Positions 7,845 to 54,939 are shown, numbered from the stretch's first letter. The stretch is 64,000 nucleotides of DNA from an uncultured bacterium (GCA_963814495.1 CAWFDJ010000016.1:28106-92105); one strand, 5' to 3'. Made by a program: numbers and translations. Notes: generated by a model not told the origin, from the sequence alone.

Positions 7845-7846
7845 AT

Positions 7847-9317: not shown

Positions 9318-9321
9318 ATCG

Positions 9322-11029: not shown

Positions 11030-11039
11030 GCCTCCCGCC

Positions 11040-12002: not shown

Positions 12003-12009
12003 CATGGGT

Positions 12010-12687: not shown

Positions 12688-12722
12688 TCTCCATCTACTC
12701 TCCCTCCATCCATGTCTCCGTT

Positions 12723-13486: not shown

Positions 13487-13493
13487 CTTGTGG

Positions 13494-15234: not shown

Positions 15235-15362
15235 CTCGCGCCCTCGGTCTCTTCAACCGTGAAGAGGGGGGATACGGGAAGGCCGAGCCTTCCCGTATCC
15301 GGCGGCCGGCCGGTCGATCGGAAGGTGGCCGGCCGCGTGAAGCGTTTTGCTCACGACGCCCT

Positions 15363-25841: not shown

Positions 25842-25956
25842 CGGCGGGGCCTTATGCCCGCCCTTTACCCCTTCATGCCTGGTTAACTTGGCGCCGGGCC
25901 ATCTGCTATGCTGGATGGGGAAGAGAGGCTTTTTCTTTTAAAGGAGTGGTGGAGAT

Positions 25957-29793: not shown

Positions 29794-30976
29794 AATTTGG
29801 GGTCTGACCCTAAATTCAGTAACTCGACGAGGTCGTAGACGGGCAGGCCGCCGGACGCGCGGGAGGTGTCGCCCAGGTTGGCCTCGCAGAAGGGGCAGCA
29901 GGTGACCAGGGCCTCGGCCCCGGTGTCCGCGGCCTCCTCCAGGCGCGCCGCCGCCAGTTCCGCCGCGAAGGAGCCGTGGGCGGTGCGCACGCCGCCGCCC
30001 GCCCCGCAGCAGAGGGAGTTCTCGCGGACGCGCTCCATCTCCACCAGCTCCAGGCCGGGGATGGCCTCGAGGACGCGCCGGGGCGCGTCGAAGACGCCGC
30101 CGTGGCGCCCCAGGTGGCAGGGGTCGTGGTAGGTGACCCGCATCTTCACCTCGGGCGGCTCCAGCTTCCCCTCCTCCAGCATCCTCACGAGGAACTCGGA
30201 GAGGTGCAGCACTTCCGCGTCCAGCGCCCCCAGCTTGGGGTACTCGTGCCGGATGATCCCGTAGCACCCGGCGCAGGCGGTGATGATGGTCGACGCGCCG
30301 CAGCGCGCGAAGGTCTCCAGGTTGCGCCGGGCCAGGTCCTCGTAGAGCCCGCGCTCCCCCACCCGCAGGGCGGTGGAGCCGCAGCAGGCCTCGTCCTTGC
30401 CGAGGATGCCGAAGTCCACGCCCATCCTCTGCAGCAGCTCCGCCGTGGCCACCGCCACCGGCTGGGCCGCGGCCACGTAGGCGGCGGTGCATCCCGGGTA
30501 GTAGAGGACCTCCGCCTGCTCCCGCGGCAGGGTCTTCAGGCGCAGGCGCTTGGCCCAGCGGTCGCGCGACTGGCGCGGCTGCATCCAGGGGTTGTCGTAG
30601 TTGATCACGCTCTTGAGCAGCGCCTCCTGCGCCTCCAGGGGGCCCAGTCCTTCCCGCACCGCCAGGCGCCTCACCTCCATCAGCAGCTCGGTCACCTGGA
30701 TGCCCATGGGGCAGCGCGACTTGCAGGAGTAGCACTGCGAGCAGTAGTAGAGCACCTCCGGCCGGAGGACCTCCTCCTTCCGGCCCAGTTGCAGCAGGCG
30801 CACCAGCTGGCGGGGGGTCACTTCCCAGGCCCGGGCGGTGGGGCAGGAGCCCACGCAGGTGCCGCACTGCATGCAGGAGAAGAGCTTCTTCCCCGCCTCG
30901 GTCTCGCACAGCAACTCGCCGAAGAAGCCCGGCTCGCTGCCGTCCAGCTTCAAGGTGTGGTCGTCCATCATCCATC
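29766..30976 (-). CDS. HdrD/GlcF-like Fe-S oxidoreductase: 2 x [4Fe-4S] ferredoxin motifs + 2 CCG domains
   Basis: CMQCGTCVGSCP and CSQCYSCKSRCP; CCG motifs ..YYPGCTAAY..CCGS.. and ..YHDPCHLGRH..CCGAGGG..; ATGA start overlap with hdrA stop. Confidence 0.75.
29793..29816. terminator. Near-perfect palindrome AAATTTGGGGTCTGACCCTAAATT (copy of 27764..27788)
   Basis: Read directly; lies between convergent repeat protein 2 and the hdrD-like gene, which reads through it. Confidence 0.45.
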
Positions 30977-32926: not shown

Positions 32927-33045
32927 CCCAGCCGCCCCCGGTGGCCCGGTCCGGCCGGGCCTCCTCCACGATCATCACAACCGTCGAGACAAAACGGAAA
33001 GAACCGTCGATTGTAGTCACTGGTGCGGCGAGTCAACTGCGTAAG

Positions 33046-36612: not shown

Positions 36613-37652
36613 ATGAGCGCGGAAGTAAGGCTGACGCAGTGGTCCAGCAAGGCGGGCTGAGCTGCCAAGCTGGGTCCGGAGGACCTCAAGGACATCCTTA
36701 AATCGCTGCCTCCCGAGCGGCGCGAGGAGTTGCTGGTGGGGCTGGAGACGCCCGACGACGCGGCCGTCTTCCGCCTGCAGCGACGAGCTGGCCCTGGTGC
36801 AGACGGTGGACTTCTTCACCCCCATCGTGGACGACCCCTACCTCTTCGGGCAGATAGCCGCGGCCAACGCCCTCTCGGACATCTTCGCCATGGGGGGAAA
36901 GCCCCTGACCGCCATGAACATCCTCTGCCACCCCTGCAAGCTGGGGAGCGAGGTGGCGGTGGAGATCCTGCGGGGCGGCGCGGACAAGGTCCGGGAGGCG
37001 GGCGCGGTGATCGTGGGCGGCCACACCGTGGACGACGAGGAGCCCAAGTACGGGCTGGCGGTCACCGGGGTGGTACACCCCGGGCGCATCCTCACCGCCG
37101 CGGGGGCTCAGCCGGGCGACCTGCTGGTGCTCACCAAGCCCATCGGCACCGGCATCCTGGCCACCGCGCTCAAGGGGGACTTCCTCGAGGCGGAGGGGAT
37201 GGCGGAGGCCGTGGAGGGCATGCGCGCGCTCAACGCCGCGGCTTCCGGAGGTGGCGCTGGAGGCGGGCGCCCGCGCCTGCACCGACGTGACCGGCTTCGG
37301 CCTGTTGGGGCACCTGCTCGACATGCTGGCGGGCGGCGGGGTGAGCTGCGTCCTCGAAGGCGGGGACGTGCCCCTTTACCCCCGGGTGATGGAGATGGCG
37401 GAGATGGGGATGGTCCCGGCCGGCGCCTACAACAACCGCGCCTTCTACGGGGACAGGGTCTCGGCGGACGGCCTGGACGAGCTGGTCCTGGCGGTGCTGT
37501 GCGACCCCCAGACCTCCGGCGGCCTGCTGCTGGCCGTGCCGCCGGAGCGGGTGGAGGAGGCCCTGGCCGGCCTGGAGGAACGCAATCCCGGCGGTGGGCG
37601 GGTCATCGGGCGCTTCACCGAACCCGGCCCCATCCCCTTGACGATAGAGTGA
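36613..37652 (+). CDS. selD: Selenophosphate synthetase SelD, selenoprotein form (in-frame TGA at 36658..36660; frameshift near 36781)
   Basis: [25 protein letters not shown].. aligns with the SelD active-site GxGC/U..K region; downstream ..[25 protein letters not shown].. AIR-synthase-like fold. Confidence 0.85.
36674..36686 (+). promoter_or_regulatory. Candidate SECIS hairpin GGUCC-GGA-GGACC, 13 nt 3' of the selD UGA
   Basis: Perfect 5-bp stem read from sequence at the canonical bacterial SECIS distance. Confidence 0.35.
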
Positions 37653-37775
37653 CGGTGCCAGGCACCATCACTTTTTCGTCACTTTTTCCGTCACTCTCTG
37701 CCGCGGCTCATGGTCAGGCCATTTTCAATGGGATTATGCTAAAATTTATATACTTTCATTTTTGAGGAGGAGCGC

Positions 37776-38359
37776 ATGGATAGACGGCAATACGGTGGAC
37801 GCGCGGGGGCTGGCCTGTCCCCAGCCGGTGGTCATGACCAAGCAGGCCCTGCGGGAGGCCGCCGGTCCCCTTACGGTGCTGGTGGACAACCCCACGGCCC
37901 GGGACAACGTCACCCGCTTCGCCCGCTCGCAGGGGTGCGAGGTGGAGGCGCGGGAGGAGGACTTCGGCTTCAGCCTGGAGGTCACCCCGGGGCGCCGGGG
38001 AGGCCGCGGCGACCGGGGAGAGCGGCGCGCATCTCTTCGTCCTCTCCTCGGACTTCATGGGCAAGGTCGACAACGACCTGGGGCACCTGCTCGTCAAGGC
38101 CTTCCTCAACACCCTGGCGGACCGGGACGACCTCCCCTCCCACCTCGTCCTCTTCAACAGCGGGGTGGTCCTGGCCTGCGGGGAAGCGGAGACGGTGGCC
38201 CCGCTCAAGCGGCTGGAGGGCCGGGGCGTGTCCATCCTGGCCTGCGGCACCTGCCTGGACTTCTTCGGTCTCAAGGAGGAACTGCGGGCGGGCATGGTCA
38301 GCAACATGTACGAGATAGTGGACGCGCTGGCGGGAGCCGGCAAGTGCATAACGATTTAA
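37776..38359 (+). CDS. yedF: YedF-type selenium metabolism protein (TusA-like + DsrE/DsrF-like); probable 1-nt insertion after the ATG
   Basis: ..[24 protein letters not shown].. (TusA CPxP motif) and ..[34 protein letters not shown].. (DsrE-like); RBS GAGGAGG + ATG 37776. Confidence 0.6.
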
Positions 38360-38365
38360 TACGAT

Positions 38366-38428
38366 GTCATTGCGAGCAAGCGAAGAACGATCCATGAGAT
38401 TGCTTCGTCGCAAGCTCCTCGCAATGAC
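38366..38428. repeat. 63-nt imperfect palindromic intergenic element, copy 2
   Basis: GTCATTGCGAGCAAGCGAAG...CTTCGTCGCAAGCTCCTCGCAATGAC; shares an identical 27-mer with the element at 4276..4331. Confidence 0.5.
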
Positions 38429-38446
38429 ATGGAAGGTAGGAGGCGG

Positions 38447-39868
<1,422 letters not shown>

Positions 39869-39872
39869 ACAG

Positions 39873-41803
39873 TTGCAGGGCCTGATCATCGGCACCGCCG
39901 GCCATATCGACCACGGCAAGACCCAGCTGATCAAGGCCCTCACCGGCACCGACACCGACCGCCTCAAGGAGGAGAAGGAGCGGGGCATCTCCATCGAGCT
40001 GGGCTTCGCCGAGTTCCCCCTGCCCGACGGCACGCCGGCCGGGGTGGTGGACGTCCCCGGGCACGAGCACTTCGTCAAGAACATGCTGGCCGGGGCCACC
40101 GGTTTCGACCTGGTGCTGCTGGTGGTGGCGGCGGACGACGGGGTGATGCCCCAGACCCGCGAGCACCTGGCCATCATCGACCTGCTGCAGGTGCGCGAGG
40201 GGCTGGTGGTCGTCACCAAGGCCGACCTGGCGGACTGAGGAGATGGTCGAGCTGGTGCGGGAAGAGGTGGGCGAGCTGCTGGCCGGCACCACCCTGGAGG
40301 AGGCGGAGGTCATCACCACCTCCACCGTCACCGGGCAGGGCCTGGACGAGCTCAAGGCAGGCGCTGATGCGCGCGGCCGGGCGGGTGCGGGCGCGCCGGG
40401 GCGACGGGCCCTTCCGCCTGCCGGTGGACCGGGTCTTCACCCTGAAGGGCATCGGCACGGTGGTCACCGGGACGCTGTGGGAGGGTTCCGTCTCCGACGG
40501 GGACGAGGCCGTCCTCGAGCCGCAGGGCCGGGCGGTGCGCGTGCGCAACGTGCAGGTGCACGGGAAGGAAGTGGAGGCGGCGCTGGCCGGACAGCGCGTA
40601 GCGCTCAACCTGCCGGGCATCGCCGTCGAGGAGATCGACCGCGGCGACGTGGTGGTGAGCGCGGGGTACCTCTCCCCCACCTTCATGGTCGACGCCCGCC
40701 TGCACCTGCTGGAGAGCGCCCCGCGCCCCCTGAAGAACCGCTCCCGCATCCGCTTCCACCACGCCACCCGCGAAGTGCTCGGACGGGTGGTCCTGCTGCG
40801 GGAGGCGCGGGAAGGACAGGAGGTACAGGAACTGGCCCCGGGGGCCAGCGCTTACGTCCAGTTCCGCCTGGAGGCCCCGGTGGTGGTCAAGTACGGGGAC
40901 CGTTTCATCCTGCGCAGCTACTCCCCCGTCACCACCATCGGCGGCGGGCAGGTGCTCGACTCCCATCCCCCGAAGCACCGCCGGGTCGACCAGGGCCTGC
41001 TCGAGGCGCTGGCCGTGCGGGAGCGGGGGGAGGTCTCGGGGGTGCTCCAGTCCGTCTTCGACGGGCGGGGGGTGCCGCTCGACCTGGAGAGCCTGGAGCG
41101 CCTGAGCGAGATGGACCCGCAAGCTGTCCGCGCCACGGCGGAGGAGATGCTGCGGGAGGGGACCTGGCGCGGCATACCTTCCGAGCGCAAGGCCAAGCTG
41201 ATGCCCGTCAAAGATGTACGACGCTTACGCGGAGAAGATCACGGGGCTGCTGAAGTCCTTTCACCAGGCCAATCCCAGGGAAGCAGGCATGGAGAAGGAG
41301 ACCCTGCGCACCCGTCTCTCGCGCACCCTGCCCGCGGGTGATTTCGACGCCATGCTCAAGCTGCTGGCAGGAGGGGGGCGCCGTGACCGTCAAGGAGGGC
41401 AGGGTGTCCATCCGGGGCGAGGGCCGGGCGCTCACTTCCGACGAGGAGCCGGGAGAAGCAGGCCGTTCTTGCCGATATCGAGGCGGGCGGCTTCGCGCCC
41501 CCCTTCCTCAAGGAGTTGGCCGAGGCGCACCGCCTGGACGCCCGCAAGGCGCGGGACTTCATCGGCATGCTGATGGAGGAAGGGGCCATCGAGCAGGTGA
41601 CGCAGGATTACTACCTGGCCCGCGGCAGGCTGGCCGAAGCGGAGGAGGGCATCCGCGCCTTCCTGGCCGCACACGGCCGCCTGGAGGTCAAGGACCTCAA
41701 GGAGATGTACGGCCTGACGCGCAAGTACTCCATCCCCCTGCTCGAGCACTTCGACAGGTCCCGGGTGACGCGGCGCGACGGCGATTACCGCGTGTTATGG
41801 TGA
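39873..41803 (+). CDS. selB: Selenocysteine-specific elongation factor SelB (about 5 frameshifts; TTG start)
   Basis: [25 protein letters not shown] (G1), DVPGHE (G3), ..VVTKADL (G4), beta-barrel domains, C-terminal winged-helix domains ending ..[10 protein letters not shown]. Confidence 0.8.
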
Positions 41804-41833: not shown

Positions 41834-41929
41834 GGAGATGCATTCGTCCTGGTGGGCGGCCCGGTCTTCAAAACCGGTGCGGCGTCGTAAAGGGCGTCGG
41901 GTAAGTTCGATTCTTACGCATCTCCGCCA
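41834..41929 (+). tRNA. selC: tRNA-Sec (anticodon UCA)
   Basis: 96 nt GGAGATGC...GCATCTCC-G-CCA; 8-bp acceptor stem, 6-bp D-stem with 4-nt loop, anticodon loop CUUCAAA, long variable arm, T-arm GTAAG-TTCGATT-CTTAC. Confidence 0.85.
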
Positions 41930-42040
41930 CTTTTTGGGTCAAGTCCTGTGAAGTGGCCCCAGGTCTTGGGAACGCTCTGCCCGCAACTGGCAGTCGTCAA
42001 CTTCAAAGTGGACCTGACCCCAGTTCGCTCACGTCCCGGA

Positions 42041-44595
42041 CTACCGCGGGTAGCCGATGGAGTCGGTGGCCCAGGTGCGGCCGTTCCCGTACATCGAGCG
42101 CTCGCAGATGACCCCGCCGCCCGAGGATACGACCTCCGTCGAGACGTTGTAGTCGGTCACGTAGTCGTTGACCTTGAAGGTGACCCGGGAAAAGCCGGGG
42201 ATGTTCACGTCCTGCGGTCCGGCTACGTACCCCGAACCTGTCATGAAACCGAGGTCCACGGTCACGGCTCCGCTGTTGGGGTTCTGCACCAGCACGAAGG
42301 TCTCCATGCCCCCGTCGGTGGAACCCTCCGCCAGGAACCAGACGTCGGAGGCGGCAGCGGTGGTCCCGATGGAGTCGTGGGCCCAGGCGCGGCCGTTGCC
42401 GTAGACCGAGCGTTCGGCGATGACCGGGATGCTGCCGGAGACCGCCGGTGGACACGTTGAAGTCGGTGACGTAGTCGTTGACCTTGAAGGTGACCCGGGA
42501 ATAGGCGGGTATGGTCACGTCCTGCGGGCCGGGCACCACCCCGGCGCCGGTCATGAAGTCCAGGTCGACCAGGGCAGCGGACGAGTAAGGGTTCTGCACC
42601 AGCACGAAGGTCTCCATGCCGCCGTCGGTGGAGCCCTCCGCCAGGAACCAGAGGTCGGAGGGGACGGTGACCCCGATGGAGTCGTGGGCCCAGGTGCGCC
42701 CGTTGCCGTAGACGGAGCGCTCGCAGATGACGTCATCCGTGGCTTCCACTACGGTGGAGACGTTGTAGTCGGTGACGTAGTCGTTGACCTTGAAGGACGC
42801 GCGGGATTGGGCCGGGAGGGTGTAGACCGGCGGCCCGGGCTCCGCGCCCGCGCTGGTCATGAAGTCCATGTACACGTCCACCGGGTAGGCGTTGGGGTTC
42901 TGCACCAGCACGAAGGTCTCCATGCCGCCGTCGGTGGAGCCCTCCGCCAGGAACCAGAGGTCGCTCGGGTCGGTGACCCCGATGGAGTCGTGGGCCCAGG
43001 CGCGCTCGTTCCCGTAGACCGAACGCTCGCAGATGACGTTGCCCCCGGCCGGGGTGACCTTGGTGGACACGTCGAAGTCGGTGACGTAGTCGTTGGCCTT
43101 GATGGTGACGCGGGAGTTCGCCGGGACGAGGACGTCGTTCAGGGCTCCGGGAGCCACGACCCCGCTTCCGGTCATGAAGGTGACGTCAACCGTGACGTCG
43201 TCGGCGTTGGGGTTCTGCACCAGCACGAAGGTCTCCATGCCGCCGTCGGTGGAGCCCTCCGCCAGGTACCAGGGGGCGCCGTTGTAGACCTCCTCTGTGT
43301 AGAGGATGCCGTCGACGAAGCCCGGCCCGCCGCCGATGCCGTCCCAGGCGACGCGGGGGTTGCCCAGCGGGTCCACCGCGATCACCGGGTACGACTCCGA
43401 GCACTCCGAGAGCATCACCGGCGCGGACCAGCCGCCCCCCCGGTTGGCCGAGTACCAGACGTCAAGCCCGCTTGCGCCGTTGCTCCACACCCAGACCACC
43501 TGGGGATAGCCGTCCTCGCCCACGGCTATCTCGGGCATGTGGTTGGTGTCGCTTGAGGGGTCGAGGTTGAGCGGGGTGGTCCAGCCGCTGCCGGGGTCGG
43601 TGGTGTAGAAGGTCCCTTGGTGCGTGCCGTCGAACCCGCTCCAGACGACGTGCGGGTGCCCGGCCGGGTCCACCGCCATCCGCGCGTGATCAAAGTCCGT
43701 TATGCCGGCGGCCACGTTCACGGGGGCGGACCAGCCGGTCCCGGGGTTGGCGACGTAGTGGATCCCCTGGGGGGAGGAGCTCACCTCCCACATCACGTGC
43801 AGGCCGTCCAGGTCGTCGACGACCAGGGTCGGGTAATAGCCGATGACGGTGCCGGAGATGCTCACCGGGGGGGTCCAGAGCCGGAGGGCGCGGCGGTGGA
43901 GTAGAAGACCCGGGGGGACCCGTCGCTGCCGTACCAGACCACGTGGAGGTTCCCCGTCGAGTCCACCCCGATCTTGGGGCGCTGGTTGTCCGTGGTCCCC
44001 GACGACAGGTCCAGCGGCACCGACCAGCCTCCTCCGATGTCCCTGGTGAAGTAGGTCCTGATCACCGCGGAGTAGGTGCCCTTGAAGACGACGTAGGCCC
44101 CGTCCCCGTCCACGGCGATGTCGGGGGCGGCGTTGTCCACGGAGGGGCCGGCCGAGGAGAGGTTGACCGGGGCCGACCATCCCGCCTCACCCAGGGTGGA
44201 GTAGAGGACGTGCACGCTGGAGACGGAGTACTCGCACCAGACCACGTGGGGGCTGCCGTCCGGCCCCAGGACCATCTTGTAGTCGTCGGGGTCCTCGTCG
44301 GTGCCGGTCGAGACGATGGCCGGCTCGGACCAGCCCGAGCCCAGGTTCTCGGAGTAATAGAGGTCCAGACCGTGCCCGCCTGGCCCTTCCAGAGGACGTG
44401 GGTGCCCCCCTGGCCGTCCACGGCGATCTGCGGTGACTGGTTGCTGGTGATGGTGTCGGAGGAGATGTTCACCGGCTCCGACCACCCGGGCGACGCGACC
44501 GCGCTCGAACCGCCCAGCATCATCCCCGCCGACGCCAGCATCATCACCGCTGTCAACAGGGCCAGCCTCGTCTTGATCCTTGTTCTACCTCGCAC
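42041..44595 (-). CDS. Secreted protein: signal peptide + BNR-like (GWSxP) beta-propeller repeats + 5-6 C-terminal copies of the ~105-aa WYLAEG repeat (repeat protein 3; frameshifts)
   Basis: GTG start with RBS AAGGAGGT; MRGRTRIKTRLALLTAVMMLASAGMMLGGSSAVASPG; ~8 units of ..G.GWS.P..LS..(P.IAVD..G..HVVW); then W[YF]LAEGSTDGGMETFVLVQNP..VICERSVYG..WAHDSIG repeats; ends ..DSIGYPR*. Confidence 0.65.
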
Positions 44596-44687: not shown

Positions 44688-45799
44688 TCAAAGGTCTATC
44701 CTGGTGGCGTACAGCTGGAGGTGGGCATCCATGCCCGGGGTGGTGTGGGCGGCGCCCTGCGCGTCGACGATGAGCAGCTCGTACCCGTGCCCCTCCGCCC
44801 ACTCCACCGCCTGGGGATAACCCATGACGAAGAGCGCGGTGGAGAGGATGTCCGTCTCGGCCCCGCCCGTCTCGCTGGAGGAGGGGATGAGCACCGAGTC
44901 GCTGATGGACGCGGGTAGCCGGCCGGCCGGTGGAAGGGTCGAAGATGTGGTGGTAGCGCACTCCCCCGTACTCGAAGTAGCGCTGGTAGTCGCCTGACGA
45001 CGATAGGCAGGTGTCGCCCTCGAGGGTCAGCTGGCCCAGGTACGAGCCCGGGTCGCGCGCGTTGATGACGGCGATGCGCCAGTCCGGCCCGCCGGCCTCG
45101 CGCGGCTTCTCCCCGATGGTCAGGGTGGTGCTGACCATGTCCACGAACCCGCTGGTGATGCCCTCCTGCTTGAGGACCTTGACGGCCGCGTCCGCCGCGT
45201 AGCCCTTGGCGACGCCCCCCAGGTCGATGATCATCCCTTCCCTCGCCAGGTAGACGGTCCTGTCGGCCTCGTTCAGGACCATGTATTCGTCCGCCGCAGC
45301 GCGACAGGGCTTCCTCTATCTCCGCGTCCGAGGGGGGCCCCAGGCCGCGCTCGCGCCTGCCCACCACGTCCCAGAGGTCGATGACCGGCCCCAGGGTGAC
45401 GTCGAAGCTGCCGCCGGTCTCGGCGTGAAAACGCTGGGAGAGGGCCAGCACCGCGAAGAGGTCGTCGGAGACCCTCACCGGGGCGGCGTGGGCGTCGCGG
45501 TTGACCGCGGCCAGCTCGCTGGCGGGGTCGTGGCGGTTGAACACCCCGTCCAGCCGGCGCACCTCCGCGAAGGCGGCGTCCGCGGCGTCCTCCACCACCC
45601 GCGCGTCCCGGCCGTACAGGACCATCTTGATGGAGTCGTCGAGGATGTACTCGGTGCGGCTGTAGGGCTCCTCCAGGTAGCCCGAGCCCTTCCCCAGCCA
45701 GGCGAAGAGCAGGATGACCAGGGGCACCGCCACCAGCAGCCCCACGATGATCAGCAGGGTCTCCCGGCGGTTCTTCCTGACCAGTTCCTTCTTGTCCAT
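44688..45799 (-). CDS. apbE: FAD:protein FMN transferase ApbE (2 frameshifts)
   Basis: N-terminal TM, ..GSFDVTLGPVIDLW.., ..IIDLGGVAKGYAADAAVKVLKQEG.., ..YHHIFDPSTGRPA.. ApbE family blocks. Confidence 0.75.
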
Positions 45800-45893
45800 A
45801 GACGTCAGTATAACACGGGGTCAGCCCCGGATTTCAACGCGGGAGGTAAAGAATCGAGACCCGGCCGAGGGTAAAGGTTTATGGGGGGGCGGG

Positions 45894-45925
45894 AAGGAAA
45901 AGGGGCCGGGAGAACCCGGCCCCTT
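45894..45925 (-). terminator. Rho-independent terminator after rnfD: GGGGCCGGG-UUCU-CCCGGCCCC followed by UUUUCCUUCC on the minus strand
   Basis: Perfect 12-bp stem (AAAGGGGCCGGG/CCCGGCCCCTTT) with 4-nt loop and U-tract, read directly. Confidence 0.55.
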
Positions 45926-45939
45926 TCGATCGATGGAGA

Positions 45940-46896
45940 TTACGACGCGGCTACCGCTCCGAACCTCTCCGGCTTGAACACCTTGTCCAGCAGTGGCACG
46001 AAGGCGTTGCCGATGAGGATGGAGAAGGCCACCGCTCCGGTAGGACCTCCGTAGGTCCGTATGAGCACTATGCAGATGCCGATGAGCAGGCCGAAGACGA
46101 TCTGCCCGTACGCGGTCATGGGGCTGGTCACCCAGTCCGTGGCCATGAAGAAGGCCCCCAGCATCACGCCGCCCGCCAGGATGGCGTAGATGCCGTCCTT
46201 GCCCAGTACGTAGGAGAGCACCAGCACGGTGGCGATGATGGTGGTGGGGATGATCCAGCGGATGGTCCCCTTGTAGAGCAGGTAAGCGCCGCCCAGCAGC
46301 ACCCAGAAGGCCCCCACTTCCACCAGCGCGCCGCCCGAGTCGTTGCCGAACAGCAGGGCCAGGTAGGACGGGTGGGGCATGTCCGCGAAGGTGCCGTGCT
46401 TGAGCAGGGCCAGCGGGGTGCCTCCCGTCGCGCCGTCGAAGTAGCCGGGGATGACCCCCAGGTAGTGGGTCCAGGATGCGATGATGCCCGAGCAGAGCAG
46501 GACGAAGACGAAGCCGAAGAGCGCCGGGTTGAAGATGTTGCGCCCCAGGCCGCCCGTGAGTTCCTTGACGATGACCACGGCGATGAACACCGCGATGACC
46601 AGCGTGAACCACGGGGTGAGGGGAGGCATCACCAGCGCCACCAGTACTCCGGTGAGCAGGGCGCTCAAGTCCATCACCGTCGGTTCCTTCTTCATCAGCT
46701 TACGTATCACCCAGTCGAACGCCACGGCCGCGGTCGCGCAGATGGCCAGGTTGATCAGGGCGTTGACCTTGAAGACCACCAGAGCCGCGATGGCCGCCGG
46801 AATAAGGGCGATGAGCACGTCGCGCATGTTGGTGGAGATGTCCCCCTTGGCCCGCAGATGGGGTGGAGGTGTAACTACCAGGTTATTAGTTGCCAT
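45940..46896 (-). CDS. rnfD: RnfD/NqrB-family membrane subunit with FMN-attachment threonine motif
   Basis: ..PPHLR.., ..GRNIFNPAL.., ..FFMATDWVTSPMT.. (covalent FMN site); 318 aa intact. Confidence 0.8.
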   Translation of the reverse strand: MATNNLVVTPPPHLRAKGDISTNMRDVLIALIPAAIAALVVFKVNALINLAICATAAVAFDWVIRKLMKKEPTVMDLSALLTGVLVALVMPPLTPWFTLVIAVFIAVVIVKELTGGLGRNIFNPALFGFVFVLLCSGIIASWTHYLGVIPGYFDGATGGTPLALLKHGTFADMPHPSYLALLFGNDSGGALVEVGAFWVLLGGAYLLYKGTIRWIIPTTIIATVLVLSYVLGKDGIYAILAGGVMLGAFFMATDWVTSPMTAYGQIVFGLLIGICIVLIRTYGGPTGAVAFSILIGNAFVPLLDKVFKPERFGAVAAS

Positions 46897-48250
46897 ATCC
46901 CTTCACCTCCTCTAACTGTTCTTCTTCTTTAAGGCCGCTATCTCGGCCTTGGCTTTCCGGACATATTGCACGTGCGGGATGTAGGCGGGGCAGGCTGAAG
47001 GAGCAGCAGCCGCACTCGAAGCAGTCCAGCGCGCCCCACATCTCCGCCTTGTCCCACTGTTCCCGCCGGGTGGACTGGGCGATGAAGTTGGGCATGAGGA
47101 ACATGGGGCAGACCTCCACGCACTTGGAGCAGCGCACGCACTCGCGCTCATCGCCCAGGTCCACCAGGTCGCCCGCCAGCACCACCACGCCGGAGGTCCC
47201 CTTGACCACCACGGCGTTCATCTCGGTCTGGGCCCAGCCGGTCATGGGGCCGCCCATGATCAGCTTCTCAGGGCGTGCCCACGAAGCCGCCGGCCGCCTC
47301 GATCAGGGTGGAGATGGGGGTGCCGATCTTCGCCAGGAAGTTGGAGGGGTTCTTGATGCCCGGGCCGGTGATGGTGAGCACCCGCTCGTACAGGGGCTTG
47401 CCGGTCTCGGCCGCTTCCTTCAGGGCGATGGCGGTGCCCACGTTCTGCACCAGGCAGCCCACTTCCGAGGGGAGCTTGCCCGGGGGCACCTTGCGCCCGG
47501 TGAGCGCGAAGATGAGCATCTTCTCGGCTCCCTCGGGGTACTTGACCTCGAGTATCTCCACCGAGAGGCCCGCTTCTCCCTTGACGGCTGCTGAAAGGGC
47601 GTCGGCCGCGTCCATCTTGTTGGCCTCCACCCCGATGATGCCCTTGTCGGCCCCCACCGCTTTGACCAGGAGCTTGAGGCCCGCGACCAGGTCGGCGGCG
47701 CGCTCCAGCATCAGCCGGTGGTCGCAGGTGAGGAAGGGCTCGCACTCGCAGGCGTTGATGATGACCACGTCCACCCGCTTGTCCTTGGGCGGGGCCAGCT
47801 TGACGTGGGTGGGGAAGGCGGCGCCGCCCATGCCCACCAGGCCGGCGTCCTTGGCCACGGTGCCGCAGTTCCTCGGCCGATAGCGCTCCCGCGTCGCGGG
47901 AGGCTCCCCGCGAAGGCGGGCTGGGACGCGTCCGGGGTGATGATCACGCTCTTGACCTTGGCGCCGGTGAAGTTGGCCACGTCCTCGATGGCCTTGACCG
48001 TACCCGCGACCGAGGAGTGTACCGGGGCCGAGACGAAGGCGTCGGTGGACCCGATCAGCTGGCCGACCGCCACCTTGTCGCCCACGTTCACCACCGGTGA
48101 GTTGGGGGCCCCGATGTGCTGCTGCAGGGGGATGACCACCTCGGCCGGCACGGGGGCCTCGACGATGGCCTTGCCCGCCGCCAGTTCCTTGTTGTAGGGG
48201 GGATGGATGCCGCCCCTGAAGGTCTTCAGATTACCGCCGTGTTCAGACAT
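46886..48250 (-). CDS. rnfC: RnfC-like NADH-binding Fe-S subunit (2 frameshifts)
   Basis: ..GGIHPPYNK.., ..GMGGAAFPTHVKL.., ..CVRCSKCVEVCPM.. and ..CFECGCCSFSCP-like.. ferredoxin motifs across 3 ORF pieces. Confidence 0.7.
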
Positions 48251-48251
48251 C

Positions 48252-49181
48252 TCAGCCCTCCTTCCTTTCCATCCGCTCGTTTCGTTTGTTGATCACGTAG
48301 CTGACGCCGGCCGCCGCGACCAGGCCCACCAGGCCGATGCCGCCCCAGGCGGCGCCGGGCTTGACGAGGTACTCGAAGGCGGTGACGCCGGCCGGTACCG
48401 TGGGCTTGGCCGGCAGGCCGTAGCTCTCCGGCTCGTCCTCCAGCACGTAGATGTAATGGAGGCCGGAAAGCTCGTCTACGCCGTAGACCCGGGCGCCGCT
48501 CACGCCGTACTTGGTCTTGAGCTCGTTGACCCTCGCCGCGGCCATCTCCTTCATCGCTTCCAGGTCCCCGAAGTGAAGGGCGCCGGAGGTGCAGGTGGAT
48601 ACGCAGGCCGGCTTGTTGCGCAGCCAGGCCTCGTTGACCAGGCCGCCCTTGTCGTCCTTCTTGTCCAGCAGGGCCTGGAAGTCGGCCAGGGGCTTGCGCA
48701 TGTCCTCACCCTGGAAGGCCTCCGTGGTGTTGGAGATGCGGTCGAAGCAGAGGCGGCAGCGGAAGATGCCCTTCTCCTTCTCCTTGTAGCGGCAGGCGGA
48801 GAAGGGGCAGGTGGCCACGCAGTAGTTGCAGCCGATGCACTTGTCGGTGTCGGTCATGACCACGTAGGCCTCCTCGTCGCCGTCCGAGACCTTGTACTTC
48901 TTGGTGGCCCCTGAGGGGCAGACCTTGACGCAGGTGGCGTCGGTGCAGTGCATGCACTGGTACTTGGTGAAATGCCACCACAGGTCGTCCGCCGACTTGG
49001 CGTCCTCCGGCTCGTTGAAGAGGATGCGCATCCAGCACTCGCTGGTCAGCTCCAGCGGGTTCTCGTAGGTGCCGTTGTTGTAGGTCTCGGTGATCTCATT
49101 CTGGTTCCAGCTCTTGCAGGCGACCTGGCAGGCCCGGCAGCCGGTGCACTTGCTGGCATCGAACATTATCGCCTTAGCCAT
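48252..49181 (-). CDS. Formate dehydrogenase Fe-S subunit (FdnH/FdhB-like, 4 x [4Fe-4S], C-terminal TM anchor)
   Basis: MAKAIMFDASKCTGCRACQVACK.., ..CMHCTDATCVKVCP.., ..CIGCNYCVATCPF..; C-terminal hydrophobic helix. Confidence 0.8.
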   Translation of the reverse strand: MAKAIMFDASKCTGCRACQVACKSWNQNEITETYNNGTYENPLELTSECWMRILFNEPEDAKSADDLWWHFTKYQCMHCTDATCVKVCPSGATKKYKVSDGDEEAYVVMTDTDKCIGCNYCVATCPFSACRYKEKEKGIFRCRLCFDRISNTTEAFQGEDMRKPLADFQALLDKKDDKGGLVNEAWLRNKPACVSTCTSGALHFGDLEAMKEMAAARVNELKTKYGVSGARVYGVDELSGLHYIYVLEDEPESYGLPAKPTVPAGVTAFEYLVKPGAAWGGIGLVGLVAAAGVSYVINKRNERMERKEG

Positions 49182-49182
49182 C

Positions 49183-52100
49183 TCAGCTCACCTTCCTTAC
49201 GTTGACCAGGAACGCTTTGTACTCCGGGATGGTGGTGTTGCCGTCGCCCACGTGCGGGGTGAGCTGGTTGGCCGCGTAGCTGCGCTTGGCCACCTTACCC
49301 TGCTCGCCGCGCTCCCGCCCGCCGGGGAACATCCCGGTGAAGCCGAAGTGCCAGACCATGCCGACCACGTGCACGTCCCTGGTGCCGCCGTTGCCGTCGC
49401 CCACGTTGATGGGCTGCAGGCGGGGGGTGACCACCGCCACGCCCTGCACCTTGCCGCGCAGGCTGCTTACTTCAACGACAGTCGCCCTTGCTGATGCCCA
49501 GCTCGTCCGCCAGGGACTTGGAGAGCTCCACGAACATCTCCGGCATGGCCTCGCCCAGCCAGGAGAGGCTGCGGGTCATCTGGCCCGCCTGCCAGTGCTC
49601 GGTGACGCGGTAGGTGGTGCCGATGTAGGGATAGTCGGTGGAGCCGACCTCCGCGAATCCGTACTTCTCCGGGTCGCCGCCCTTCTCCGGGTCGGTGGAG
49701 GGGTACTTCAGCACCGCGGCCGGGTTGTTCTGCTGCTTGCTGAGCGCGTTGTGCACGGGGCTCTCGGCCGGCTCGTAGTGCTCGGGGAAGGGTCCCTCGT
49801 TGGCCTTGTTGGTGAAGAGCAGGCCGAGCTGGCTCTCCTTCCAGTCCATCATCAGGAAGGGTCCGTTGTTCACGCCGGAAGCAGGTCGCCGGGGGCGTGT
49901 TGGGCGCGTCGGCGGTGCCTGCTACGAAGTCGGGCACGTCGTTGTTGACCCACTTGGCGCCGTCCCAGCTCACCAGGGCCTTGTCCTTGGCCCAGGGCTC
50001 ACCGTTGTAGTCGGCCGAGCAGCGGTTGTAGATGACGCGGCGGTTGACAGGCCAGCACCAGGCCCAGTAGGGATAGAGCTGCAGGCCCGGCTGGTCCGGG
50101 TAGATCTTGTTGGGGTCGGTCTGGTACTGCCACTTGAGCTTGTTGCGGGAGACGGTGCCCTTGTCGACGCCCGCCGCCTTGGCGACGGTCTCGAGCAGGG
50201 CGTCGCCTTCCTTGACGTAGAGGCCGCGAGTAGATCCAGTTGCAGCAGGCGGTGCTCCCGTCGGCCAGCAGGGTGGCGAAGGAGACCAGGGTGCTGGCAC
50301 GCGCCTTGTCCCAGAAGTCCTTGGTGCCCTTGACGTCCTTGGGATAGGTGAACCCGTTCAGCTCCAGGTCGATGTTGTCTACGACGATCTCGCCGTGCTC
50401 GTCCCGCTCGTAGTCCCAGAACATCCCGGTGATGGCCTCGCGCGCCGGAGCGCTCTTGTCGTCCTCGTAGAGGGCCTTCAGGCGGGTGGCGAGCTGGTCG
50501 GCTATCCACAGGTCGCTCTCGGCCTCGCCCGGGGGGCTCACCGCCTTGTAGCGGTACTGGGCCAGGCGGCCGGAGTTGGACACCGAGCCCTCCTTCTCGA
50601 TGGAGGAGGCGGCGGGCAGGGCGTAGACCTTGGTGGGGATGTTCTTGACGTCGGCCCCGGGGCGCCGCCAGAAGTTCATCATCTCGGTGTCCCAGAGGTC
50701 GATGGCCACCAGCCAGTCCAGCTTGTCCAGGGCGGCGCACTCCAGGTTGGCGTTGGGCCCGCCCACCGGCGGGTTCTGCCCCCAGCTGATGCAGCCCTTG
50801 ATGATGCCCTGGTACATGTCCTCGAAGAGGGGGATGTGGGAGTAGTCCTTGGACCCGTCGCGCTTGGGCATGCAGGTCGTAGGCGGCCGCCAGGCCCTTT
50901 TCCGCGACCACGCCGGGCCACCAGCACTTCAGCATGCTGGCCAGGAACTTGGGCCGGTTGACCCAGTAGCCGCCGATCTTCTCCGGGCGAGGAGGCGGCG
51001 TTGTAGGTGTCCAGGTCCTTCTCCTTGGAGGTGGGGCAGGGCATGTAGCCGGGGATGATGTGGTAGAGCAGGGCGGCGTCGGTGGAACCCTGCACGTTGG
51101 ACTCGCCGCGCAGCGCGTTGATGCCGCCGCCCGGCAGGCCGGTGTTGCCCAGCAGCAGCTGGAGCACGGCGAAGGTGCGGATCTTCTCCACCCCGACGGT
51201 GGACTGGGTGAGGCCCATGGCGTACATGAGGTTGCCCGACTTGCCCGGCATGTAGGTCTGCTTGACGTAGGCCTCGGCCAGTTCCTTGAACTTGGCCTGG
51301 GGGATGCCGCAGACCTTCTCCACCATGGCCGGGGTGTAGCGGGAGTAGTGCTCCTCCAGCTTGGCGAAGGCGCTCTGGGAATAGAGCGGGTGCTCCCGGT
51401 TGACCTTGCAGGTGCTGGGATCCCCGTTCTCCATGCCGGTGGGCTTGCCCCGGAAGTTGGTCATGTCATCGACGTCGATGAGGGGCATGCGCAGGGCGCC
51501 CGTCTTGGCGGCCTGGTCCTTGTACTGGACCATCCAGGTGCTCTTGTCGTAGGCGGCGCCCATGGTCTTGCCGTCCTGGCGGCCGCTGAACAGCCCGGTG
51601 GCGGAGTCGAAGCTGAAGCCGTCCACCACCAGCAGGGGCCCGTTGGTGTAGTTCTGCACGTACTCCCATTGTATGTAGTTGTTCTGGATGGCGTAATTGA
51701 TGAGGCCGCCGAAGAAGGCGATGTCGGTGCCGGGACGGATGAAGGAGAAGGCATCGGCCTTGGCGGCGGAACGGGTGAACCGGGGGTCTACCACCACCAG
51801 CTTGGCTCCCCGTTTGTCGCGGGCGTCCTGGATCCACTTCCAGGAGATGGGATGGTTCTCGGCGCAGTTGCAGCCGCAGACCATGAAGGCGTCGGCGTTA
51901 CGCAGGTCGGACCAGTGGTTGGTCATGGCGCCCCGCCCGTATGTGGCCCCCAGACTGGAGACCGTGGCGGAGTGTCATATTCGGGCCTGGTGTTCGAGGT
52001 AGACGATGCCGAGTGCCCGGGCCAGCTTGGTTTCCAGCGCCAGTTCCTCGTTGTCCAGCGCGGCCCCGCCCAGGTTGGCGATGCCGGTGCACCGGTTGAC

Positions 52101-52538
52101 GGTGACCCCGTCCTTGTCCGTCGTCGTGAAGTTGGCGTCCCGGGTCTCCTTGATGAGTTTGGCGATGTCGTCCAGCGCCTCCTCCCAGGAGATCTCCTTC
52201 CATTCGGTGGCGTTGGGCTCGCGGACGCGGACCTTCTTCAAGCGCCACTCGCTGGTGGACGTCTGGAGGATGGCCTGCCCCTTGGAACAGAGTGAACCCC
52301 GGTTGATCGTGCTGTCGGCGAGGCCCTCCATGGCCACCACCTTGCCGTCCTGGACGCTCACGATGGCTGAGCACCCGACGCCACAGTAAGGGCATACCGT
52401 GGTGGTCTCGGTCGCGCTGCTGATGCGAAGCGTCTCCCCCGCGGCGATAGCCGAGGCCTCAAAGCCCAGGCTGATCAGCGCGACGGAGCCTATCCCCGCA
52501 CCGGAGAGCTTCAGGAAACCTCTTCGCGTAATTTCCAT
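49183..52538 (-). CDS. fdhA: Formate dehydrogenase catalytic subunit, Tat-exported selenoprotein (in-frame TGA at 51975..51977; about 3 further frameshifts)
   Basis: Twin-arginine signal MEITRRGFLKLSGAGIGSVALISLGFEASA; ..VCPYCGVGC..; ..LEHQARI-U-HSATVSSLGATYGRGAMTNHWSDLRNADAFMV.. matches the FdnG/FdhF Sec region (UHGPTV..GRGAMTNHW). Confidence 0.85.
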
Positions 52539-52806
52539 GCTTTCCTCCCACTTTCCTCAGTTTCCTTCAAAACCTGCTTGACTGCGTTTCTCGATGCTGC
52601 GACTGTATTTCGACCCGGCCGGCCCCGCGGCCGCCCGGTAAATGATTTTCTTAAACTTTCCGGGGAAACTCGCTTCCCCGGCGTCAGGCCAAGTTCACAA
52701 CTCCATATGTTTTCAAAGAACGCCTCGGAATAAAATCCTTATTATTATAGTATCGGTTTTTCCCTTAAGGCAAGATGGAACAGCAATGGTTTCGTAACGA
52801 TCTCGA

Positions 52807-53661
52807 TCATGAGAAAACCGTCCGACAGGCCCGGTCATACCCTTCCTTCTGCGCCGCCTCGTCCAGGTAGGAGGTGAACAGGTCCTCCAGGGGGAGGACG
52901 ATCTCCTCCGGTTGCCCCTTGCGGTCGGTTATCTTGATGTAGCGCTTGCAGCTGTCGCAGACGTAGACGCGCCGGGCGCGGTCTTCTCCCGCGAAGAGGT
53001 ACTTCAGCTTTTCCTGCTGCGCCGCGCCGCAGAAGAGGCAGAGCATGCGGGGGGTGCCCCAGCGGCTGCCGCAGAGGGAACACTCCAGCACGCGCAAGCC
53101 GTCCTCGTCTCGGTTGAAGCCCATCACCGGCGGCGCCCCGCATACGGGGCAGGCGGCGTGGGGGAACTGGTCCAGGTCGATGCGGGGATGCAGTTCCAGG
53201 GCCAGCTTGCGGAAGACAGCGGCGAAAGTGGCGTGCAGGAGCAGGCTGAGCACGCTGTAGTCCACGTCGAACTCCTCGGCCATGGCCTTGAGAGAATCCT
53301 CCCGCCCCTCCAGCCAGGCGCGCCCCAGCTCCTCCACTTCTTCCGGGCTCAGTTCCCGGTTCTTCAGGAATTCGCGTTCCCGCGTTCCGGTGGAGCTGCT
53401 CTTGCGGGCGACTATTCCCTTGATCTCCTGGAAAAGCTGGTTGAAGGTCTCGTAGCCGACCTCGATCGACTCCGGGTCCAGCAGGGGCAATCCTTCCCCC
53501 AGCCGTGCCCTGATCTGGACCTCGTCAAGCTCCGGCGAGGACACTTCCAGGCGGCCCAGGTATTTCTTCTGGGCCCCGAATATGTCGCGGTACAGCTTCA
53601 TGGTCCTGGTGATCCGGTCGCTCAAGGCTTCGTACTCCTTGATGCGCCGGTTGATCAGCAC
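52807..53661 (-). CDS. fdhE: Formate dehydrogenase accessory protein FdhE-like
   Basis: Four CxxC pairs ([30 protein letters not shown]) in the FdhE arrangement. Confidence 0.65.
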
Positions 53662-53718
53662 CTTGGTCGTCTTCGGCTGCTTCAGGTTGAACTCTCCTAT
53701 GTCGATCGACCTCCCGTC

Positions 53719-54468
53719 TCAGTCAGCTTCCTGCTTGAGCGCTGCCACTCTCCGCCTGCGCAGGCCGAGCATGGCGAAGAGGATGGACCCTTCGTAGAGT
53801 ATAAACATGGGCGCCGACACCATCAGCATGGTGATGGGGTTCCAGTCCGGGGTGATGAAGGCGGCGAAGATCAGGATGGCGATGATGGCGATGCGCCAGT
53901 TCTTGTGCAGCTTCTGGGGCGTGACGATGCCCAGGCGCACCGCCAGCCAGACCACCAGCGGGGTCTCGAAGGTTATGCCCAGGGCCAGCAGGAGCAGGGT
54001 GACCAGGCTGATGTATTCCATGGCCGTGAGCATGGGCTGCAGGTGCGTGCCCGCCTGCCCCACCAGCCAGTTGAGCCCGGCCGGCAGTATATAGTAATAG
54101 GCGAAGATCGTGCCCCCGAGGAAGAAGAGGACGATGACGGCCAGCGAGACGTACATGATCTTCTTCTCCTTCTTCCTCAGGGCGGGGGCCACGAAGGCGA
54201 AGATCTCGAATATGATCACCGGCAGGGCCAGGACCAGCCCGGCGTAGATGGCTATCTTGAAGCGGACCATGAAGGGGTCCAGCACGCTCAGGTAGTGCAG
54301 TTCCAGGGGGATGGAGGCGCGCTCGGCCGGCTGCTTGAGGATGTCCAGGATCTGCCAGGAGAAGATGTAGCAGACGGAGACGGCCACCGTCAGGGAGAGG
54401 AAGGCGACGATGATGCGCCTGCGCAGTTCCTCCAGGTGTTCGAAGAGGGTCATCTTCTTATCGGCCAA
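53719..54468 (-). CDS. tatC: Twin-arginine translocase TatC
   Basis: ..LTLFEHLEELRRR.. N-terminus, 6 TM, 249 aa. Confidence 0.85.
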   Translation of the reverse strand: MADKKMTLFEHLEELRRRIIVAFLSLTVAVSVCYIFSWQILDILKQPAERASIPLELHYLSVLDPFMVRFKIAIYAGLVLALPVIIFEIFAFVAPALRKKEKKIMYVSLAVIVLFFLGGTIFAYYYILPAGLNWLVGQAGTHLQPMLTAMEYISLVTLLLLALGITFETPLVVWLAVRLGIVTPQKLHKNWRIAIIAILIFAAFITPDWNPITMLMVSAPMFILYEGSILFAMLGLRRRRVAALKQEAD

Positions 54469-54544
54469 CCGTAACCCCCTTCAGGGAATGTAAGGTGGGG
54501 CAGGTTCCGGCAAGGGAGCGGGAGAGCGGGGCGGGGCGCCCCGG

Positions 54545-54787
54545 TTATTCCTCGTCCTTCTTCTCTTCCTTCTTCTCTTCCTTCTTCTTGCTCTCTTCTT
54601 TCTCGCTGCCGTCGACGCCGTCCCGGATGGCCTTGGTCAGCTCCGTGCTGCCCTCGCGGAACTCGCGCAGGGCCTTGCCCATGGAGCGCCCGATCTTGGG
54701 CAGCTGGGCGGGGCCGAAGATGATCAGGGCGATGAGCAGGATTATACCCAGTTCCGGCAGGCCGAAGCTCTGAAAAATCGCCAGCAT
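54545..54787 (-). CDS. tatA: Twin-arginine translocase TatA/E
   Basis: MLAIFQSFGLPELGIILLIALIIFGPAQLPKIGRSMGKALREFREG.. + KE-rich tail. Confidence 0.8.
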   Translation of the reverse strand: MLAIFQSFGLPELGIILLIALIIFGPAQLPKIGRSMGKALREFREGSTELTKAIRDGVDGSEKEESKKKEEKKEEKKDEE

Positions 54788-54939
54788 CTTTCCGCATACC
54801 TCCTTAGTTTCATTCCGTCCGTGCCCAATATAGTAGACCGCCGTTCGCGCATAAGTCAAACGACGCTGACGGTGCTGGCATCTTCGGTATTTTAGCGACA
54901 CGGACGTCACTGGCGGTGTCGGACGGTGTCCGGCACCGC

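Follow-up and report, generated by a model that had tools for sequence, protein, structure and literature searches.

In the solved structures of the Rnf complex the flavin mononucleotide (FMN) of RnfD lies in the extracellular leaflet of the membrane and is reduced by the FMN of RnfG; electrons then pass to the riboflavin of RnfD (7.7 Å), to two clusters and the FMN of RnfC and finally to nicotinamide adenine dinucleotide (NAD+) (Vitt et al., 2022, PMC9588780). RnfC and RnfD thus make up the half of the complex that leads electrons inwards, from the outer face to NAD+ in the cytoplasm. This half has been noticed before beside formate dehydrogenase (FDH) in Bacillota. In the uncultured 'unFirm_1' Rnf is truncated to its C and D subunits and adjoins an FDH, and both RnfC and the FDH were detected in a metaproteome (Frank et al., 2016, PMC5080403). 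In Candidatus (Ca.) Syntrophonatronum acetioxidans, a syntrophic acetate oxidiser, the Rnf genes reported are limited to those of RnfC and RnfD and two RnfG-like ones (Timmers et al., 2018, PMC6295475), and a 2025 preprint described 'FdhAH-RnfCD' in Natronincolaceae with a canonical Rnf in the same genome (10.1101/2025.07.15.664484). Protein-level expression of the pairing has been reported (PMC5080403, 10.1101/2025.07.15.664484); it is biochemically uncharacterised and its function is a prediction. In the open-access and bioRxiv literature, a 2025 review of Rnf/Nqr makes no mention of formate dehydrogenase, and two surveys of ApbE-linked systems (Méheust, 2021; Huang, 2024) make none of formate, molybdopterin or RnfC. 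Here we describe an actinobacterial locus of this kind, in a 64,000-nucleotide stretch of DNA from an uncultured bacterium (GCA_963814495.1 CAWFDJ010000016.1:28106-92105; hereafter the window), in which genes for the alpha and beta subunits of an FDH adjoin rnfC and rnfD and the other rnf genes were not found. The original prediction, made on the same DNA, took this wiring to be undescribed, which is not so: the pairing stands in Frank et al. and in the 2025 preprint, with the case of Timmers et al. related to it.

The system is a hybrid of the alpha and beta subunits of an FDH-N type enzyme and the RnfC-RnfD half of Rnf. We consider it probable that FdhA, FdhB, RnfC and RnfD form a membrane complex that links formate and CO2 outside the cell to NAD+ and NADH inside. 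The genes lie on the minus strand in the order fdhA (49183-52538), fdhB (48252-49181), rnfC (46912-48250), rnfD (45940-46896) and apbE (44688-45799), and the rnfD/apbE gap holds a terminator-like GC-rich hairpin (45895-45920, minus strand; GGGGCCGGG-TTCT-CCCGGCCCC followed by TTTT). This order and its coordinates had been predicted and were borne out by Pfam and by analysis of the hairpin, with apbE directly behind rnfD, past the hairpin. The genes are tightly packed: TGAGATG forms the junction of both fdhA/fdhB and fdhB/rnfC, and the 15-nt gap between rnfC and rnfD contains GGAGG. For comparison, one genome per species (GTDB) was scanned with the window RnfD, which gave 80 loci; these were compared by tblastn with intact Solincola proteins and by locus-by-locus inspection.

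FdhA, the exported catalytic subunit, contains the Pfam families Molybdop_Fe4S4, Molybdopterin and Molydop_binding. Its N-terminus carries the twin-arginine motif TRRGFLK, and an in-frame TGA (51975-51977) is followed directly by a histidine codon (U-H), in agreement with the selenocysteine (Sec) and the twin-arginine translocation (Tat) signal that had been ascribed to the protein. An intact FdhA orthologue (L005) scores 1052 bits against NCBIfam TIGR01553 (FDH-N alpha), for which the cut-off is 814. Among the related loci the active-site position is Sec in 47 and cysteine in five, and 47 of 52 FdhA N-termini have the twin-arginine motif. From the UGA a stem-loop resembling a selenocysteine insertion sequence (SECIS) can be drawn (51924-51979, minus strand; fold -25.7 kcal/mol, z=-1.9), including a GGUCUCCA/UGGGGGCC hairpin 16 nt past the UGA; support for it is modest. 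An Rfam search over the window returned the Sec tRNA only, with no riboswitch and no annotated SECIS family. FdhB is intact at 309 residues, matches Pfam Fer4_11 and related families, and has the four cysteine clusters and membrane tail originally predicted, the latter a single C-terminal hydrophobic helix at residues 278-298. Among proteins of solved structure FdhB is closest to E. coli FdnH (1kqf_B; E=9e-45), with which both of its halves align, including the region of the C-terminal helix.

RnfD is likewise intact (318 residues) and consists of a single Pfam domain (PF03116, E=1.4e-91), no other being found. It scores 265 bits against TIGR01946 (cut-off 207) and aligns over its full length with the RnfDs of A. 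woodii (9eri_D; 3e-64) and C. tetanomorphum (9e-62). RnfC, which has a NuoF-like NAD/FMN domain, was recognised by Pfam RnfC_N (1e-37), Complex1_51K (3e-52), SLBB and two 4Fe-4S matches; an RnfC orthologue scores 542 bits against TIGR01945 (cut-off 246), and the intact Solincola RnfC matches C. tetanomorphum RnfC (7zc6_C) at 6e-137. RnfD and RnfC are approximately 45-55% identical to the proteins of solved structure. The Solincola RnfC retains GMGGAxFP and both CxxCxxCxxxCP motifs, as does the window RnfC once its frames are stitched together. Thr160 of the window RnfD aligns with the flavinylated threonine of the solved RnfDs (T153 in C. tetanomorphum), as the original prediction had it, and this FMN-attachment threonine is present in all 80 RnfDs of the enzyme-linked clade described below. 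ApbE, an FMN transferase, was delimited by tblastn to Geothermincola ApbE, which matches it in three frames; the orthologue has the Pfam ApbE domain. An N-terminal hydrophobic segment of ApbE (residues 11-40) is a membrane anchor, and RnfC is without a signal sequence. The topology signals (the Tat motif of FdhA, the FdhB helix, the ApbE anchor and the lack of a signal on RnfC) agree with the proposed complex.

The partners that RnfC and RnfD have in a six-subunit Rnf were sought with the canonical rnfCDGEAB of one related locus (L068), its products verified by Pfam (FMN_bind, two Rnf-Nqr proteins, and RnfB with PF04060). No tblastn match to RnfG, RnfE or RnfA was found in the window or in 79 related loci; the RnfB query yielded only generic Fer4 matches inside FdhB, and Pfam scans detected no PF04060. 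Pfam scans of most of the window likewise returned no FMN_bind, Rnf-Nqr (PF02508) or cytochrome b family, those of the flanks found no FdnI cytochrome b, and rnfC follows directly behind fdhB. The absence from the window of rnfG, E, A and B and, in the Pfam-scanned parts, of an FdnI-type anchor, on which the original prediction relied, is thereby upheld. Searches with canonical RnfE and RnfD gave no match labelled Solincola or Geothermincola among the best 120. The prediction had also allowed that the module might couple formate to ferredoxin; this reading was rejected, as no RnfB, the ferredoxin-side subunit, was found at the locus.

The association of the four genes extends far beyond the window. 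In 50 of the 80 loci FdhA, FdhB, RnfC and RnfD are encoded within 4.5-6.9 kb, and most of the other loci end at a contig edge right beside FdhB-RnfC-RnfD or RnfC-RnfD; a canonical rnfCDGEAB operon is present in exactly one (L068). Carriers include Actinomycetota (Solincola, Geothermincola, Anoxymicrobiaceae and further metagenome-assembled genomes, MAGs), Dehalococcoidia, many Bacillota (Syntrophomonadaceae, Halobacteroidaceae, Dethiobacteria, Alkaliphilus) and Desulfovibrionaceae. At least five gene orders were seen, among them fdhE-A-B-rnfC-D, rnfC-D-fdhA-B, fdhA-fdhE-rnfC-D-fdhB and fdhA-B-rnfC-D-fdhE. Conservation of the order in relatives, proposed at the outset as a check, thus holds for the linkage of the four genes, which spans four phyla, and not for the order itself. 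A linkage that survives rearrangement of gene order is the signature of a functional unit.

Phylogeny sets these proteins apart. In neighbour-joining trees the enzyme-linked RnfDs, 80 in all, group in a single clade from which 64 canonical RnfDs are excluded, namely those of three solved structures, that of L068 and 60 relatives of the latter, two of which were checked and lie in canonical rnfCDGEAB-apbE operons. The split has a bootstrap value of 98/100 on a reduced data set, with the caveats that neighbour joining is simple as a tree-building method and that the canonical sequences were gathered around a single query. Five genomes carry two modules each, at two loci. In such a genome the two RnfCD pairs are separate and each has an enzyme of its own; for a single split Rnf complex, two modules per genome would be superfluous. 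The proposal that RnfCD replaces the cytochrome b and makes the link to NAD(H) therefore draws support from the four-phylum linkage, the separate clade, the retained cofactor motifs and the two-module genomes.

FDH is not the only enzyme found beside RnfCD. In a Desulfovibrio MAG (L044, 8539-14688) and a Syntrophomonadaceae MAG (L069, 8594-14689) RnfCD are followed by a HybA-like four-cluster subunit, which has a C-terminal helix, and by the small and large subunits of an exported [NiFe] hydrogenase; Tat motifs are present on the hydrogenase small subunit and on the iron-sulfur (Fe-S) subunit. This arrangement suggests a hydrogenase version of the NAD(H)-linked module. At four further loci (L057, 1974-8097; L029, 1-4470; L030; L079, 6900-12453), in Solincola, Ca. 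Geohydrothermomicrobium and a Bacillota MAG, RnfCD stand beside molybdopterin oxidoreductases of 750-800 residues that do not resemble FDH. One of these loci (L057) also encodes a TorD/NarJ-type chaperone, and an FdhB-like subunit is present in L057 and L079, where the contig reaches. In Ca. Solincola daggyaiensis the molybdoenzyme-linked module is a second one, besides that linked to FDH. The RnfDs of the hydrogenase- and molybdoenzyme-linked loci fall within the enzyme-linked clade, an indication that the conduit is general and not specific to formate. We tentatively propose, as something that may or may not hold in this breadth, that RnfCD with an FdhB/HybA-type subunit is a widespread, monophyletic general conduit between Tat-exported enzymes (FDH, [NiFe] hydrogenase, molybdoenzymes) and cytoplasmic NAD(H).

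By homology with the solved Rnf structures, a path for electrons through the proposed complex can be traced. FdhA, with a molybdenum or tungsten bis(pyranopterin guanine dinucleotide) cofactor and Sec, and FdhB, with four [4Fe-4S] clusters, would be exported by the Tat system encoded just upstream, and the C-terminal helix of FdhB would hold FdhAB on the outer face of the membrane. ApbE, anchored with its catalytic domain outside, would attach FMN to Thr160 of RnfD. The cluster chain of FdhB would then feed, or be fed by, the flavin of RnfD, with electrons passing from the FdhB clusters to the RnfD FMN in the outer leaflet, to the RnfD riboflavin, to the two [4Fe-4S] clusters of RnfC, to the RnfC FMN and to NAD+. 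FdhAB would in this way stand in for the half of Rnf made up of RnfB, RnfA/E and RnfG, and RnfCD for the cytochrome b of FDH-N. As electrons would cross the membrane, the reaction would be electrogenic: formate oxidation to NADH would build a membrane potential, and NADH-driven reduction of CO2 to external formate would be driven by it. In Rnf, the electron in the leg from RnfD to NAD+ moves against the ion-motive force (Kumar et al., 2025). Formate oxidation in the module would therefore charge the membrane.

The standard potentials of CO2/formate and NAD+/NADH are approximately -430 mV and -320 mV, so that the formate-oxidation direction would need favourable concentrations. The CO2-reduction direction suits the syntrophs from which the module is known. 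For the host of the window we incline to the view that formate is taken up to supply electrons, or is released to dispose of them, since formate made by an exported enzyme would lie across the membrane from the Wood-Ljungdahl pathway.

Several points weigh against the proposed complex. The physical association of FdhAB with RnfCD is itself put forward from sequence comparison, and NAD(H) as partner, the hand-over from Fe-S cluster to RnfD flavin and the energetics are all predicted in the same manner. In Rnf the donor to the RnfD FMN is the flavin of RnfG and not an Fe-S cluster (PMC9588780). At standard potentials the energy from oxidising formate alone would scarcely cover the transfer of two charges against a full membrane potential, which leaves direction and coupling uncertain. 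FdhB scores 178 bits against TIGR01582 (FDH-beta), below the cut-off of 335. The flavinylation motif, of the form [ST]-x-A-T in ApbE substrates, reads DGATGGT in the window (T-G-G-T; 46417-46419, residues 159-160) and GATGAT in a relative whose RnfD is 92% identical; the residue at position -1 of the FMN-threonine is thus glycine in the window and alanine in all 79 relatives, which is possibly a sequencing error or else a rare substitution at the site recognised by ApbE. An arginine beside the RnfD flavin (R130 in C. tetanomorphum), invariant in the 64 canonical sequences, is phenylalanine in the window (F129) and variable in the clade (R 42, F 18, Y 10, L 9), so that the properties of the flavin may differ. 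Finally, three of the five genes fdhA, fdhB, rnfC, rnfD and apbE are frameshifted in the assembly, a matter taken up below. Beside these points stands a further change near the flavin: the position of Ser284, which contacts N5 (A290 in the window), is alanine in 78 of the 80 clade members and mostly cysteine in canonical RnfDs. Together, the changes at the R130 and Ser284 positions may retune the potential of the RnfD flavin.

An unlikely variant of the proposal is that the same complex is in addition an ion pump, RnfD keeping a Na+/H+ channel as in the RnfD/NqrB-channel model, so that passage of electrons through RnfD would drive ion translocation as well as separate charge. A putative Na+ passage has been placed in RnfD near Asp248, Asn124 and Glu185 of the C. 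tetanomorphum protein (Vitt et al., 2022, PMC9588780), and the equivalents of all three are kept in 80 of 80 clade members. Kumar et al. (2025), on the other hand, found no Na+ site or pathway in RnfD, reported that mutants of the proposed residues grew normally, and assigned pumping to RnfA/E, which were not found at the locus. Under their model the module would be a pure electron wire and under that of Vitt et al. it could still pump; the conserved residues do not settle the matter. Asn90 of C. tetanomorphum, part of the proposed Na+ site, is apolar in all 80 clade members. It looked like a discriminating residue against four canonical sequences and failed as one against 64, many canonical RnfDs being apolar there too.

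That the rnfC and rnfD of the window are the sole C and D genes of a six-subunit Rnf, with rnfGEAB elsewhere in the genome and the adjacency to fdh reflecting co-regulation only, seems to us very unlikely. Genome papers on relatives of the window do list the 'Rnf complex (rnfABCDEG)' as present (PMC12917137, PMC7325909). Against this, the linkage to FdhAB persists over four phyla and several gene orders, the RnfDs concerned form a separate and well-supported clade, several genomes have two modules, and canonical operons have C and D genes of their own. There are, moreover, published genomes with only C and D (PMC5080403) or only C, D and G (PMC6295475), and one with a full Rnf plus FdhAH-RnfCD (10.1101/2025.07.15.664484). 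The original prediction had looked upon a complete rnf operon elsewhere, with the present rnfCD pair as fragments, as grounds for abandoning it; the rnfCD pairs are full-length dedicated paralogues and the preprint genome has both systems, so that such an operon is compatible with a dedicated FdhAB-RnfCD complex.

A formate:quinone oxidoreductase of the Nqr type is in our view highly improbable. In this reading the RnfD riboflavin would reduce menaquinone, just as NqrB reduces ubiquinone, and the role of RnfC would be chiefly structural, like that of NqrA. The reading has in its favour that RnfD is homologous to NqrB and RnfC to NqrA, and that enzymes of the FDH-N type normally reduce quinone. 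Yet RnfC keeps all of the NAD/FMN and Fe-S motifs that NqrA has lost and matches NqrA at only 9e-08 as against 6e-137 for RnfC, and RnfD matches NqrB at 2e-20 as against 3e-64 for RnfD.

There remain the frameshifts, of which the original account made no mention. At least ten frame changes affect the locus (five in fdhA, at least three in rnfC and two in apbE), with fdhB, rnfD and fdhE intact. A plot of G+C at third codon positions by frame shows that the frame switches roughly every 0.5-1 kb across the whole 64 kb, also within core genes such as those for a penicillin-binding protein (PBP), SelB and the Pst system (e.g. 2800-4250, 39660-41800 and 42000-44500). The changes are located at short G/C runs, amino-acid identity to orthologues in tblastn is 50-78% on both sides of most of them, and the correct frames show no build-up of premature stops. 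The orthologues of Ca. Solincola tengchongensis are intact (FdhA 190+940 residues around the Sec codon, FdhB 307, RnfC 439, RnfD 314, ApbE 368), as are those of Ca. Geothermincola, and an 80%-identical relative from a long-read survey is similarly fragmented. Since the frameshifts are window-wide and lie at G/C runs, with identity continuous and free of stops and with intact orthologues, we read them as assembly errors and not as gene decay; the window-wide switching looks like the indel errors of a long-read assembly. A decaying pseudogene array with real frameshifts in the host, for which the ten or more changes in fdhA, rnfC and apbE might speak, is given almost no credence and was rejected, as the changes run throughout the window, core genes (PBP, selB, pst) included, sit at short G/C runs between stretches of 50-78% identity without accumulated stops, recur in the long-read relative and are absent from the orthologues. 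Gene-level conclusions from this contig require frameshift-aware translation.

The host of the window is an actinobacterium of Geothermincolia-like affiliation. G+C content is 67%, the window begins with a PP2C-FtsW-PBP-PknA/PknB block (Pfam), and its RnfD is 92% identical to that of an uncultured Actinomycetota MAG, 80% to that of a soil-survey MAG and 73% to that of Ca. Geothermincola primus. Upstream of the module, in the order tatA-tatC-fdhE on the same (minus) strand, lie tatA (54450-54797; Pfam TatA_B_E, E=2.9e-14), a Tat translocase component gene found at the equal position in orthologous loci, tatC (53719-54468; Pfam TatC, E=1.5e-60), which stands upstream of fdhE in at least 19 related loci, and fdhE (52807-53706), encoding an FDH accessory protein. 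The last is recognised by Pfam FdhE_central and covered by a single high-scoring tblastn segment of Geothermincola FdhE; it scores below the cut-off of NCBIfam TIGR01562. The 270-nt spacer between fdhE and fdhA holds a promoter-like site, TTGCCT-18-TATAAT (52744-52773, minus strand), that matches the consensus at 10 of 12 positions and is weak as evidence, the scan giving two sites against 1.2 expected. In Solincola-type loci a P-type (E1-E2) ATPase of approximately 820 residues is encoded between rnfD and apbE (L002, 10815-13271) and has equivalent placement in L008, L010-L012, L014, L020 and L023; it is not in the window.

On the plus strand, the window encodes the machinery for Sec: selC, the Sec tRNA (41834-41929; Rfam RF01852, 76.6 bits; ARAGORN anticodon tca), and selD, a TusA-like gene, selA and selB (36755-41800; Pfam AIRS/AIRS_C, TusA, SelA at 2e-147, GTP_EFTU, SelB beta-barrel and SelB winged helix). 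This sel neighbourhood is also found beside orthologous loci. Two large repeat proteins, probably of the cell envelope, are encoded at 42003-44485 and 25900-27650, one of them between the Sec tRNA and apbE; they carry DUF5719-type 'WYLAEG(S/A)T.GGMETWVLVQNP' and BNR-like 'GWS.P' repeats. At 29979-32944 an HdrA-like flavoprotein with FAD/NAD-binding and Fer4 domains is encoded on the minus strand together with a CCG-domain (HdrD/B-like) protein. Behind them, on the plus strand, come genes for a family III CoA-transferase and an FMN reductase. The 80%-identical relative (L001) has these neighbours beside its FDH cluster too. A pstSCAB-phoU operon is present in tandem duplicate (7846-11720 and 12009-16115; unit approximately 4.2 kb). 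Between the copies the phoU part is 99-100% identical and the pst genes only about 78-80%, and the near-identity of phoU points to gene conversion or to an assembly artefact.

Should the proposed complex prove correct, it would provide anaerobes with a flavin route, free of haem and quinone, by which electrons could cross the membrane between formate (or H2) outside and NAD(H) inside. It would explain how syntrophs force electrons from NADH onto CO2 by means of the membrane potential, producing formate for their partners, a step that has been a long-standing bottleneck in models of syntrophy, and how other anaerobes conserve energy from formate without quinones. If the general conduit is real, anaerobes of four or more phyla would possess a family of respiratory or reverse-electron-transport complexes that has gone unrecognised. 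A natural RnfCD without RnfA/E would also be a clean test object for the dispute over whether Na+ pumping in Rnf/Nqr resides in RnfD/NqrB or in RnfA/E. Reconstructions that count matches to rnfC or rnfD as 'Rnf present' (PMC12917137, PMC7325909) may be miscounting the module.

How the locus compares with known systems can be set out as follows. Like FDH-N (E. coli FdnGHI, 1KQF), it has a Sec-containing alpha subunit exported by Tat, a beta subunit with four clusters and a C-terminal membrane helix, and a gene for FdhE. It differs in that the dihaem cytochrome b FdnI was not found at the locus, in that some 35 residues (151-188) are inserted in the window FdhB as compared with FdnH, and in the predicted acceptor, which would be cytoplasmic NAD+ reached via flavins rather than menaquinone. 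With Rnf (7ZC6, 9ERI, 8AHX) it has in common full-length homology of RnfC and RnfD, the FMN-threonine, the NAD/FMN site, both RnfC [4Fe-4S] motifs and an adjacent apbE. RnfG, E, A and B, however, were not found at the locus or at 79 related loci, leaving no ferredoxin site and no RnfA/E metal centre; the partner of RnfD at the outer face is predicted to be an Fe-S protein and not the FMN of RnfG, and the enzyme-linked RnfDs form a clade of their own.

The two-subunit Nqr/Rnf-like complexes (Méheust, 2021; Huang, 2024) resemble the module in that half of the Rnf/Nqr loop serves for the one-way passage of electrons, there between cytoplasmic NAD(P)H and an extracytosolic redox partner, as proposed here. 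In those complexes an RnfD-like domain without the flavinylated threonine is fused to an NqrF-type NAD-binding domain (PF00175) and works with an FMN_bind subunit, whereas the window RnfD stands alone, keeps its threonine and has RnfC as partner, no FMN_bind protein having been found. The FdhAH-RnfCD cases of the literature (unFirm_1, Ca. Syntrophonatronum and Natronincolaceae) share the four-gene association and the proposed link to NAD(H). These cases are brief remarks on single Bacillota genomes; the present module is actinobacterial, is set in a clade that spans several phyla, and has apbE and a complete Sec machinery alongside.

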